Assembly: GCA_951406725.2 (NCBI GenBank)
Contig: OX597823.1
Span: 15,686,001-15,750,000, forward strand
From: Octopus vulgaris
Taxonomy: Eukaryota
DNA: 64,000 nucleotides
Direction: 5' to 3'
This document shows, piece after piece, positions 12,827-54,215 of the stretch (its first letter is position 1; each line of letters opens with the position of its first letter). The position numbers and the translations under genes are program-made. The notes beneath the pieces were generated by a model. That model was not told the DNA's origin and ran no database searches. It worked only from the letters and a program-made list of their open reading frames with translations.

Positions 12827-12827
<1 letters not shown>

Positions 12828-13125
12828 TAATTGCAGCATGGATGGAAGGTGTTTCTAAGCCATTTAAAAACACACAAAAACCGTTAAGTTTACTTCAACA
12901 TGTAAATTTAACTTGCCAAAATATTTTTGTCGCTTTGAGACCGCGACCTGTTCACTGACAAAATTCCGTGCTGCATCAGATGCAGTACGGAATTTTGTCA
13001 GTGAACAGGTCGCGGTCTTATAACGACGAAAATATTTTGACAAATTAAACTTAAATGTTGAAGTGAATCTAACGGTTTTTGTGTGTTTCTTCAATGTTTA
13101 TAAGCACCTTCCATGCTGCAATTAT
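12827..13125. mobile_element. ~300-bp near-perfect palindrome (inverted Penelope-like pseudo-LTR pair) between (TA)n tracts, in PSMB3 intron 1
   Basis: Arms are symmetric about position 12978. Each arm carries a hammerhead-like motif reading outward. Confidence 0.7.
12994..13044 (+). ncRNA. Candidate variant type-I hammerhead ribozyme (G3:C8 core)
   Basis: Stem I UUUGUCA/UGACAAA; core GUGAACA plus an extra G; stem II GUCG/CGAC; GAA; palindromic stem III AAUAUU; U17. Confidence 0.6.
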
Positions 13126-14366
13126 TTCCATTCCAGCACACGATCTCATATCAGATCACTTGCTATGCAAGTACATCTCCACAATATATATATACACACA
13201 TATATATATATATATATCTGTATCTATCAGACTACCGGATGTTAATTATTACTGGTTACAATGTGCTCCCTTGCAGAGTTGTAGTTTTCAAATGATGCCA
13301 TGCTGATGGCTAAGTGAATAGGCCAACATTACCCCTGAATGGAATGCTAGTTCATTGCAGTGTTGTCAATTCACAGGTGAGTGAACTAGCTCAAGTACAA
13401 TGCATTGCTGGTCTGGAAATCAGAACCACAATCTTGTGTTTATGAGTAAAGCAACCTAACCATTAGACCATGCAACTTCATACACACACATGGCTATATG
13501 GTCAAGAAGTTTGCTTATGAACCACATGGTTTCAGGTTCATTCCTATTGCACGGCACCTTAGCGGGGTGTTTTGTGAGTGGCTTTGGTAGATGGAAATTA
13601 AAAGAAACCCACTGATTGGATATATGTGCACATCTCTTTATTCTTCTTGTACCTTTGACACTGCTTGATGAGCACCACCGCCATACGAGCAGTGTCATTT
13701 GATTTCAATCGTCTGTGAAGACACGTCTAGCTATGGGGAAATATTATCTGGTTTGGAAACAAGTGAGGATTGGTGACTGTACAAAATCTGCCTCGACAGA
13801 TAGATGTCAAACTGATGATGATGATCACTATCATATATCAAATTGACATTTTAGACGCGAAATGACATGATGGTTCAGGTTGGAGAGACTTTGAATAGAG
13901 GTGTGCTCAATCAGAGCGTACCCAGGGCTAATACATCCATACACAATTTACTTTGCTAAGATTAGATTAGCTCCTTTTCATAATTTTGTGTCGGAACATG
14001 GAAATATCATTCGTCTAATTTTATAACCATTGTACGCTATAAAATTAACTACATTATAGACAAAATAGCGTGTTTATTTAATTACAGCCCTTTAAGTCAT
14101 GAATTAAGATCTCAACGAAATCAAGAGTACTAATAAAGTACTGAGGTCTATAAAATCGACTGTTCCCTCCCAGCGTGGATCTTAGATCCATGAAACATAG
14201 GACAGTAGCATAGTGAAGGGAGATAATATAAATTCAATGACTGGCTACCTCGGTAAAGGTTTGCAATACAAAATCAACGAAACGACACACACACACATAT
14301 AACTGCAAGCTCTATTAGCTTGATAATTTAAATTTTATTTAACCAATATGTGAGTTTTATAACAAA

Positions 14367-19308: not shown

Positions 19309-19840
19309 GGATCTTTTCCTTTTGAACTGGTACAATGTGTTTATAAAACATCATTTTCTCTTGGCTTTATTGAGAAAATTCTATGGTTTGTAAGATATTT
19401 CGTCTGAAATTTTGAGCATTTCGGCAATTTTAACCAATCGATTACCTCCATTGAGCTAAAATCATTTGCTGCATCTAAAACTGAGACAACATCCTGTTAC
19501 TAACCCTAAACCTCCCCCTAACCCTAACCCTAACCCTAAATTTTTTTTTTCTTAATTGTTAAATTAATTTAACAATTAAGGAAAAAAAAAGTTAGGGGAG
19601 GTTTAGGGTTAGTGACAGGATGTTGTCTCAGTTTTAGATGCAGCAAATCATTTTAGCTCAATTAGAGGCGATTCATTGGTTAAAATTCGAAAAATTAAAC
19701 TATGTTAAACAAACGAATTACAATTTTATCAAGAAAGCCAAGAGAAAGAAATGTTTTATTTTGACACATTCTACCAGTATACAAAGTTTTAAAGTGTTTA
19801 GTTAACTAGAAATTGTGTGCCGTTCAAAAGGAAAAGATCC
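19309..19840. mobile_element. Palindromic MITE, probably Merlin superfamily, with internal telomeric repeats
   Basis: TIR GGATCTTTTCCTTTTGAAC/GTTCAAAAGGAAAAGATCC. 8-bp TSD TGATTCCT/TGATTCCC. (CCCTAA)n at ~19500-19540 and TTAGGG units at ~19590-19612. Confidence 0.8.
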
Positions 19841-48759: not shown

Positions 48760-49680
48760 ATGAGGTGACAAACTATCAGGTGGTAGCCATAAGGCGGTAG
48801 CTCCAAGGTGGTAGCTATAAGGCAGTAACTATAAGGTGGTAGCTATAAGGTGACAAGCTATAAGGTGGTAGCTATAAGGTGGTAGCTATAAGGTAGTAGC
48901 TATAAGGTGGTAGATATAAGGTGGTAGCTATAAGGCGGTAGCTATAAGGTGATAGCTATAAGGTGGTAGCTATAATGTGACAAGCTATAAGGTGATAGCT
49001 ATAAGGTAATAGCTATAAGGTAGTAGCTATAATGTGACAAGCTATAAGGTGGTAGCAATAAGGTGGTAGCTATAAGGTGGTAGCTGTAAGGCGGTAGCTA
49101 TAAGGTGGTAGCTATTAGGTGGTAGCTACAAGGTATTTGCTATAAGGTGACAAGCTATATGGTGGTAGCTATAAGGCGGTAGCTATAAGGTAGCAAGCTA
49201 TAAGGCAGTAACTATAAAGCGGTAGCTATAAGGTAGTAGCTATAAGGTGGTAGCTATAAAGCAGAAGCTATAAGGCAGTGGCTATAAGGCAGTAGCTATA
49301 AGGTGGTAGCTATAAGGTGAAAAGCTATAAGGTGGTAGCTATAAGGCAGTAGCTACAAGGCAGTAGCTACAAGGTAATAGCTATAAGGTGACAAACTATA
49401 AGGTGGTAGCTATAGGGCGGTAGCTATAAGGTGGTAACTACAAGGTAGTAACTATAAGGTGGTAGCTATAAGGTGGTAGCTATAAGGTGACAAACTATAA
49501 GGTGGTAGCTATAAGGTGGTAACTGTAAGGTGGTAGTTATAAGGTGATAGCTATTTGGTGGTAGCTATAAGGTGGTAGCTATAAGGCAGTAGCTATAAGG
49601 TGGTAGCTATTTAGTGGTAGTTATTTGGTGGTAGCTATAAGGTGGTTGCTGTAAGGTGGTTGCTATAAGGTGGCAAGCTA
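48760..49680 (+). repeat. 14-bp minisatellite (GCTATAAGGTGGTA)n, ~65 copies
   Basis: Seen directly. It runs into a Meta-domain SINE at ~49664-49870. Confidence 0.95.
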
Positions 49681-50359
49681 TACTGGGCAAAATACTTTGC
49701 AACATTTCTTTTGCCTTTACATTCTGAGTTCAAATTCCACCAAGGTTGACTTTGCCTTTCATCCTTTCTGGGTAAGTAAAATAAGTCCTAGTTGAGCACT
49801 GGGATGATGTAATTGGCTTACCCAACTCCTTCTCGAAATTGCTGGCCTCGTGTCAAAATTTGAAACCATTATTGCAACCGATAAGAGTGTTAAACTGGTA
49901 GAATCATGAGAGTGTTGGAAAAATTTCCAGATGGTACCTGTTCTGGTTTTTTACATTCTGAGTTCAAACCTTTCCAAGGTGAACATTACCGTTCATCCTT
50001 TTGTGATTAATAGAACTGAGTACTAATCGAATCCTGGGGATCAATGGTATTGACCCACTCATTGTCATCAAAATTGCTTCTGGCCTAAATTAGAAACAGT
50101 TATTACAATCTTCTAAGGTTTACCTGTTAACTCTTAAGACAGTTCTGTTTTTTCTTCCTTTCTTTCTTTAATAGCCTATTAAATTTTTCAGTTCAATGAA
50201 ATAAAAATTACGTAAATAAATGAATACAGTACAATTTAGGTTTCTTACTGGTTGGCTAAATGAGAAAGCCATTTATCTAGGCTAACTAGTCATTATTCTC
50301 CGGTAGTTAAACTGACCACTTCACAGAAGCATTAACATTTATTTCATACCTATGTGTAT

Positions 50360-50869: not shown

Positions 50870-51385
50870 ATGTGAAATAGAAAGATGAATAATCTTGTAG
50901 CAGATTAATCAAAAGTTTAACCGATACCTTGGTAGCAAAAATCACAGCAGAAAACAGCACGGTTGGAGGTACAACCATATGGTGTTGCAACCGTGCGTTG
51001 GTGCGGATAATTGAAATTAAAATATTATTGGTGAATTGAAGAAATGGAGCTGAACGAAGATTGAACAGAAAACGTTTTATTTCATTCTACACGTGTTTCG
51101 AAAGGCACAATTTACCAAAATCCGATTGAATAATGAGACCATATTGTGTCTTTCTCTTCAGGAAGAAATAGGAAATCCGTTGGAAAAAACAAAAACAGAA
51201 CAGAGGCGGAGCAAAACAAATAACTATATATAGCCCATAAAACTCCATGGGCTCTTAGGAGCTTAGTTCGATTTGTTTTGCTCCGCCTCTGTTCTGTTTT
51301 TGTTTTTTCCAACGGATTTCCTATATGGTCTCATTATTCATTTTGGTATTGTGCCTTTCGAAACACGTATAAATATAATCTTCGT
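50870..51385. mobile_element. Penelope-like pseudo-LTR with inverted partial copy, between (TA)n tracts
   Basis: Arms ~51085-51219 and 51275-51369. The left arm has an intact hammerhead on the minus strand. Confidence 0.75.
51078..51170 (-). ncRNA. Type-I hammerhead ribozyme (Penelope-like, palindromic stem III)
   Basis: UAUUUCUUC-CUGAAGA-GAAAGACACAAU...AUUGUGCCUUUC-GAAAC-ACGU-GUA/GAAUGAAAUA. All core nucleotides are canonical. Predicted cut between 51088 and 51087. Confidence 0.85.
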
Positions 51386-53720: not shown

Positions 53721-53881
53721 TGATATACTAAAGTTAAAATAATGTAGGACATATATAACTACCTCTCCTAAAAAAGTCTCACAACTTCTGGAATGTACTC
53801 ATATATATATATATATATGTATATACATTTCGTTTTTGGATTTGGTTTGCAAGATTCTTTACATGAGTTCGTGTGTTTAAG

Positions 53882-54166
53882 CATATTCTGTTGTGCCTGG
53901 GGAGAGTCATTCTCTTTTAGTGCCTTATTATTTAACATGCTCACCGGTAAAATTTCCACTTATTTCTTATTTTTATTTTCTAAAATTTTCGTTGCCTCTT
54001 GCATCCTTTTCAATAGTCTTGACTCTTGAGAGTCAAGACTATTGAAAAGGTTGCAAGAGGCAACGAAAATTTTAGAAAATAAAAATAAGTGGAAATTTTA
54101 CCGGTGAGTGTGTTAAATAATAAGGCACTAAAAGAGAATGACTCTCCCCAGACACAACAGAATATG
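53882..54166. mobile_element. ~285-bp palindrome (inverted PLE-like pseudo-LTR pair) between (TA)n tracts
   Basis: Arms are symmetric about 54027/54028. Each arm has a hammerhead-like motif reading outward. Confidence 0.75.
54039..54075 (+). ncRNA. Candidate variant minimal hammerhead ribozyme (U3:A8 core); mirror copy at 53980-54016 (-)
   Basis: CUA-UUGAAAA-G-GUUGC-AAGAG-GCAAC-GAA-AAUU-U-UAG. Confidence 0.55.
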
Positions 54167-54215
54167 TATATATATATTATCCGAAATGTGCAGTATTATA
54201 TATCCATTACGGTTG

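Follow-up and report, generated by a model that had tools for sequence, protein, structure and literature searches.

Inverted end repeats of a Penelope-like element with minimal hammerhead motifs in a (TA)n tract of Octopus vulgaris

We investigated a palindrome in a 64-kb window of Octopus vulgaris DNA, the window being the whole stretch that was analysed. With high confidence, we explain the palindrome as a pair of inverted, 5′-truncated and decayed end repeats of a Penelope-like element (PLE) lying in (TA)n, whose minimal hammerheads are predicted to cut only as a dimer, likely with protein help. The inverted repeat spans 53826-54166, with arms of 201 nt and 138 nt and a junction of 2 nt (Table 1). 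An earlier note on this DNA had placed the mirror pair at 53980..54075 (96 nt), and the palindrome is larger than that. Its arms are ∼97% alike aside from one 7-nt indel, and (TA)n tracts stand on either side. The last 11 nt of the left tract are repeated at 54162-54172, possibly as a target duplication, the tract being of low complexity. We note that the window holds two more long inverted repeats, at 19442-19671 (with TTAGGG-like runs) and 51170-51322, and a 14-nt minisatellite of ∼64 copies at 48773-49682. Separately, an open 1,076-aa endonuclease-RT frame, LINE-like by eye, was noticed at L059:3264-6491 beside a 181-nt tandem array.

Table 1. Positions of the features in the window, or in the named locus, with strand and basis
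Feature	Position	Strand	Basis
Left arm: entire 201-nt repeat unit (pLTR end piece) with tail	53826..54026	-	91-97% match over nt 1-200 to units 3′ of the 3′ UTR and GIY-YIG ORF end at other loci
Head-to-head junction TG; 5′ ends both at unit nt 1 (54026, 54029)	54027..54028	.	sequence
Right arm: 201-nt-type unit ending at the short end, ∼unit nt 144, without tail	54029..54166	+	sequence, end comparison
First 28 ORF codons (MTLPRHNRIC...) within the left arm	53827..53910	-	in L090 these codons lead into the complete ORF; the sister family's intact ORF begins with a homologous stretch
Right-arm ORF start, ATG at 54138, broken off after ∼9 codons	54138..54166	+	sequence
57-nt tail, left arm only, between the two preferred 3′ ends	53826..53882	-	3′-end positions of 146 arms
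(TA)n target, left flank	53801..53825	.	sequence
Putative minimal type I hammerhead, U3:A8 core	54039..54075	+	descriptor scan, folding, sister covariation
Right-arm hammerhead stem I	54039-41/54073-75	+	3 bp
Right-arm hammerhead core	U3 54042, A8 54047, A9 54048, extra G 54049	+	
Right-arm hammerhead stem II	54050-54/54060-64	+	
Right-arm hammerhead GAA; palindromic AAUU stem III; U17	54065-67; 54068-71; 54072	+	
Right-arm hammerhead predicted cut	between 54072 and 54073	+	
Hammerhead motif of the left arm, 36/37, with the stem II break at 54004	53980..54016	-	sequence; descriptor scan
Comparison motif (7-bp stem I, AAUAUU, G3:C8 core), part of another inverted pair, which belongs to a related family	12994..13044	+	
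Sister-family full elements	L263:1240-5838; L264:2745-7333	-; +	pLTRs in direct repeat

The parent element and its copies

A 35-nt form of the motif, with the loop base left free, has at least 1,983 exact matches in the 2.8-Gb genome (control, 0), and a 40-mer further down the unit has 580. The motif is conserved over ∼2,000 copies, which bears out the expectation that it would be kept from copy to copy. Both window arms carry a loop variant that is found in 3 of the 100 copies listed. Some copies continue upstream into a common 450-nt region. When the upstream 421 nt served as the query, 20 loci were recovered, and the unit follows in all 20, one of them with an internal deletion; the end of an ORF was confirmed by translation in 9 of these loci, which were picked by eye. 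Longer stretches of these 9 loci all contain pieces of the ORF.

The best-preserved frame, in L054, has 665 open codons with a YVDD motif, a CTNDNCMVC linker, a GIY-YIG-like VIYSIRC...YIGET and a later His pair. In Pfam this protein gives RT at E 0.008 and GIY-YIG at E 0.013, both below the cut-off. It has 184 homologues at E≤0.001, and one of the six that were scanned passes the GIY-YIG cut-off. The repeat unit follows the 3′ UTR of the RT + GIY-YIG ORF, also precedes the ORF and contains the ORF start. In L090 and L098, two of the nine long loci chosen for 5′ extent, the unit stands before and after the ORF at a distance of 4.3-4.4 kb, and in L090 it runs into the ORF, with unit nt 117 as the ATG. 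As read from these loci, the plan is the pLTR-ORF-pLTR arrangement of an EN+ PLE with RT and with GIY-YIG at the C terminus, and the hammerhead motif sits in the pLTR. The order of RT, CX2-5CxxC linker and GIY-YIG is that of the EN+ PLEs in the consulted part of Craig et al. 2021 (PMC8557442), where this linker before GIY-YIG defines the Neptune/Nematis clades; by its CxxxxCxxC motif the octopus element is assigned, on linker sequence, to the Neptune/Nematis type.

No intact ORF of the window's family was found among 150 scored matches, in which the longest frame was 665 aa, and the family looks dead. Within the motif, 4.0% of sites differ from the majority base when copies are compared, against 3.8% in the ORF part, which indicates no selection on the motif among copies. 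Unit nt 1 is a sharp 5′ boundary at which ∼41 of the 100 copies listed stop matching. By hand count a G precedes it in 20, or in 8 of 29 after removal of one duplicate and of the cases explained by an inverted partner. That unit nt 1 is a transcription start site with a copied cap is a weak possibility.

The minimal hammerhead and its relatives

To locate hammerheads, we scanned with a descriptor for a relaxed type I fold in which the 3:8 pair could be any of the Watson-Crick pairs and the extra base was optional. The sites at 54042 and 13001 were the only ones in the 64-kb window, and 30 dinucleotide shuffles of the window gave one match in total. The left arm fails the scan. The earlier note had reported a 37-nt motif on both arms, and in the right arm it is present exactly as written; the left arm agrees at 36 of 37 positions, with A for U at position 10.2, which makes an A-A mismatch at the second stem II pair, and in the folded arm the probability of stem II is ∼0. 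The right-arm motif has the features of PLE minimal hammerheads: the core boxes, a Watson-Crick 3:8 pair, GAAA and H17, an extra nucleotide between 9 and 10.1 next to a G10.1-C11.1 pair, a 15.1-16.1 stretch that is palindromic and lacks loop III, and a helix I of 3 bp. An Rfam search returned 7 matches to E 10, none a hammerhead; no hammerhead was among the 150 matches listed out of 165 in another Rfam search, and a PDB sequence search gave 0 matches.

A sister family shares 61% protein identity over 670 aa with the window's family. Its 1,309-aa ORFs are intact and lie between pLTRs in direct repeat at a distance of 4.6 kb, and its protein has no Pfam match for RT or GIY-YIG. At the matching place lies a hammerhead with C3:G8 in which two stem II pairs and one stem I pair are also changed, all of them still paired, and in which the extra G is kept. 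Both the stem I pair and the 3:8 pair go from U-A in the window's family to C-G in the sister. In the counted pairs (stem II and 3:8), 3 of 6 changed on both sides and 24 of 24 cells are paired, across two lineages only; the stem I change was read from the sequences themselves, the automatic alignment of whole units having misplaced the motifs and set stem I one column off. Because the sister family keeps the fold through four double changes, the motif is not a chance product of AT-rich DNA, and the worry voiced earlier on this point falls away, also in view of the single match in 30 shuffles. These changes support the right-arm sequence as a real minimal hammerhead fold kept by covariation.

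The sister motif has 3,092 exact copies, and in 96 of the 100 listed it has C at core position 9, together with U17. A9 and C17 are instead found in an older sister copy, L040, and in almost every RNA read of organism B. The young sister family spread with A9C, and this favours a ribozyme that is dispensable or decaying in at least one lineage. Among the open papers searched, none deals with A9C in a hammerhead.

The second site in the window belongs to a family whose ORF start is homologous to that of the window's family (score 49; best of 2,000 shuffles, 40) and which has the same two-end layout. An upstream walk from this family did not yield a link to an RT ORF, the query having caught other repeats. 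As noted earlier, the two motifs have in common the extra G, an AU-only palindromic stem III and U17, from which a common subtype had been proposed. Relatedness stands, since the two repeats encode homologous ORF starts and the link is therefore one of descent; that AU-only stem III, U17 and U3:A8 mark a subtype is not supported. In the closest relative we find C3:G8, AGAACU and U17 or C17, and stem III, position 17 and the 3:8 pair vary among the window, sister and 12994 families. In the 12994 family (window 12827-13160; L195, L196, L203, L207) the ATG lies at unit nt 117, as in the window's family, and the unit start has a branch-point, pyrimidine tract and AG, resembling a 3′ splice site. 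Other minimal hammerhead families, with ACGU stem III and some with C4 or CUGUCGA cores, were seen in L197, L208, L252, L226 and L193, and families with C3:G8 and ACGU turn up in the retrieved DNA.

The motif's features had been presented as distinctive, which the literature does not support. Minimal hammerheads (min-HHR) in the pLTRs of metazoan PLEs were described by Cervera and de la Pena 2014 (PMC4209133); the sections compared report the U3-A8 core, with ∼1,300 matches in Schistosoma mansoni, and also the additional base, a helix III that is palindromic, a short helix I and G10.1-C11.1. In Fig. S3 of that paper, whose rows were taken from machine-extracted PDF text, the S. mansoni(4) row agrees with the window motif in its UUGAAAA core, its helix I of 3 bp, its palindromic helix III of 4 nt and U17, and the Crassostrea gigas row has its AAUU, U17 and 3-bp helix I. 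All features but the identity of the extra base match these rows; the extra G lies outside the >80% consensus (H) but appears in the Nasonia row. The window's family and its host are absent from the sections of PMC4209133 compared, and the window sequence is unrelated to its rows. The open papers searched include none on this PLE family and none linking Penelope, Octopus vulgaris and Neptune; for U3-A8 and G3-C8 cores, PMC4209133 and PMC3884650 were the sole ones listed. The motif is one more family of a described class, not a new kind.

Dimer formation and cleavage

The AAUU stretch cannot close as a hairpin, and a dimer is therefore the sole way to form stem III, as the earlier note had argued. 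The mirror copy, however, cannot be the dimer partner because it is antisense, and either strand forms one hairpin; a link between the mirror pair and the dimer is not supported. In folding calculations the whole palindrome reaches -230.7 kcal/mol with both motifs buried, and the other strand forms a hairpin of -223 kcal/mol. Read-through RNA of the locus is thus predicted to be one long hairpin with the motif as a passenger, and by these models the window copy is likely unable to cut. The strand-swapped dimer, with 10 inter-partner base pairs, scores -5.2 kcal/mol, whereas a pair of stem II hairpins scores -11.8; it is thus 6.6 kcal/mol less stable than these in the nearest-neighbour model, which is rough for the junction; the 12994 motif dimer scores -18.8 kcal/mol. 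Since the dimer is weaker than the separate hairpins, the window motif would need help to cut, as the anole motif does. Small PLE hammerhead variants with reduced stem III, the subject of work by Lunse, Weinberg and Breaker in 2017, reportedly cleave as dimers. In the sections of PMC4209133 compared, opposite-strand pairs lie 100-700 bp apart, the monomer is inactive and dimers are weakly active.

Same-strand motifs in tandem were seen only in full elements, which have two pLTRs. The head-to-tail copies that the earlier note had suggested looking for are these two pLTRs, separated by 4.3-4.6 kb; short arrays of intact motifs were not found. In an active element, two such motifs, either in the two pLTRs of a long transcript or in two RNAs held by protein, may swap strands. 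We infer that the swap would run through AAUU/AAUU and stem I, with the cut after U17. When three raw RNA runs from organism B, along with a contig set, were compared with the window-family stretch, reads fell equally on both strands, 88% of them ran into unlike flanks, and no pile-up of molecule starts or ends was seen. Because the reads come from dispersed copies, they are uninformative on cleavage. On the sister stretch they show one weak start site, away from the cut.

A close parallel is the green anole's Poseidon_Ac (Frangieh et al. 2024, PMC11167929). In the part of that study consulted, uncut RNA is the main template, no RNA-seq read ends at the cut site and the hammerhead needs protein, all in likeness to what is seen or predicted for the present family. 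The anole ORF begins inside the hammerhead, whereas here the ATG lies ∼70 nt behind the motif.

We considered whether the motif descends from a hammerhead but no longer cuts, serving as a structural or protein-binding element with selection on shape and not on catalysis. The stems, of 3 and 4 bp and mostly A-U, are very weak, and copies come from uncut RNA, with 68 of the 146 arms in the layout sample below beginning at nt 12 or upstream. Nearly all of the listed exact copies of the young sister family have C9, and in the portion of PMC11167929 consulted, ribozyme mutants had no effect on insertion in vitro. However, both partners of the 3:8 pair change together, while G5, A6, G12, A13 and A14 are kept across families, as catalysis requires. 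Moreover, A9 and C17 in nearly all organism B reads make the canonical core the older state, and the anole motif cuts once protein is added (PMC11167929). On balance, we regard this shape-only account as unlikely and favour a hammerhead predicted to cut as a dimer.

Inverted pairs and the proposed insertion mechanism

To examine the layout across the family, we took the first 100 of the 580 40-mer matches, which were not chosen for their 5′ end; an exact 40-mer anchor favours young copies. After pairs had been merged, a duplicate (L120) dropped, one array (L129) set aside and two places already covered left out, 86 loci (L099-L186) remained. Head-to-head pairs are present in 52 of these, and in 34 the unit stands alone. 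In 47 of the 52 pairs the ends fall near nt 144 on one arm and near nt 200 on its partner; no pair has both ends long, 4 have both short and 1 is of another kind (p 2e-10 against independent ends). Among all 146 arms, 70 have 3′ ends at nt 132-149, 70 at nt 192-202 and 6 elsewhere. Junction gaps are mostly -5 to +9 nt, the whole motif is on both arms in 11 of the 52 pairs, and only 2 of the 146 arms start at the predicted cut, with 5 within one base of it. Flanks of family copies are 84% AT, and 37 of 141 open with (TA)3. The family usually inserts as inverted pairs in which a long 3′ end is matched with a short one, and the window pair is of this common kind. The sister and 12994 families have the same two 3′ ends as the window's family, those of the sister lying at the same distances from the ATG.

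The PLEs in the part of PMC8557442 consulted likewise have partial tandems, an inverted 5′-truncated copy at the 5′ end, a tail that is often confined to one end, and (TA)n targets. The inverted 5′-truncated copy, the one-sided tail and an AT-rich or (TA)n target are all present in the window's family, whose tail is 57 nt compared with 30-40 bp there. The mirror layout is an ordinary insertion scar of a PLE. In Poseidon_Ac, too, as far as the consulted part of PMC11167929 goes, a tail lies between two internal reverse-transcription start sites, the two sites are inside the ORF start, targets are AT-rich and the template is uncut RNA. The anole start sites lie at least 111-118 nt into the ORF, against ends at ATG+27 and +84 here. 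In vitro no difference in start site between the strands was seen for the anole element, whereas the genomic pairs here nearly always have one long and one short end.

From the end positions and PMC11167929, we infer that the element protein would nick AT-rich DNA and start reverse transcription inside the RNA. The two start sites would lie in the first ORF codons, at ∼ATG+27 and ∼ATG+84. With uncut RNA as template, two cDNAs, one per site, would extend inward, each from one strand of the target; they would end early, here both at unit nt 1, and then be joined head to head. None of the open papers searched describes twin priming in PLEs.

Arms of the same pair share 22 of 175 variant sites (12.6%), compared with 2.8% in shuffled pairs (at most 7.8% among 500), and this suggests either a single source molecule or an exchange between the arms at a later time. 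At the 5′ end, unit nt 3-12 make up a small inverted repeat, and hairpin joins at nt 9-10 are seen in many pairs; such joins suggest fold-back of a cDNA end. The palindrome might then have formed after insertion, or by one cDNA folding back, in place of two priming events, and shared variants are also expected from fold-back or arm-to-arm conversion. Fold-back alone, however, copies the first arm. It leaves unexplained why, in 47 of 52 pairs, the second arm stops at the other of the preferred sites, and hairpin-free joins at unequal points are seen in many pairs. We therefore hold this origin to be improbable and retain two priming events.

We also weighed a non-LTR retrozyme, in which short head-to-tail repeats yield dimers and RNA circles. 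An array of 12 copies of a 218-nt unit (L129:1952-4567) does hold family sequence, and retrozymes have been proposed to derive from pLTRs in a 2026 preprint (10.64898/2026.07.22.740005), the main text of which does not mention Octopus. However, the array is an amplified inverted junction of the window's family with a broken core, none of the 100 motif copies listed has, by eye, a same-strand neighbour within 1 kb, and the unit belongs to a coding element. Non-coding head-to-tail repeats that each carry an intact hammerhead, the feature of such retrozymes, were not found, and this reading is very improbable. Least credible of all is a DNA transposon of MITE type, whose terminal inverted repeats would be long and whose hammerhead look would be due to AT-rich chance: the palindrome is short, non-coding in appearance and high-copy in AT-rich DNA, with no Rfam hammerhead match, but the points at which its arms join vary, their ends fall at two unequal sites and arms stand alone in many loci, the double changes in the sister and the shuffles speak against chance, and the continuation of the arms into an RT ORF refutes this reading, since a MITE has fixed terminal inverted repeats and no RT link.

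For the Penelope-like end repeats as we explain them, we tentatively propose that one complex primes two nicked strands at the fixed positions ATG+27 and ATG+84 and that the hammerhead takes no part in this, the rule being kept across PLE families that are 61% alike while a core base may be lost (A9C) in a lineage that spreads. The near-strict pairing of one long with one short end constrains Penelope-like integration, a step that a first in vitro study has addressed. With the 3:8 pair as U:A, C:G and G:C, the three related families offer natural test pairs, and the young sister family, with intact ORFs and A9C beside older A9 copies, gives a direct route to the question of cleavage versus spread.
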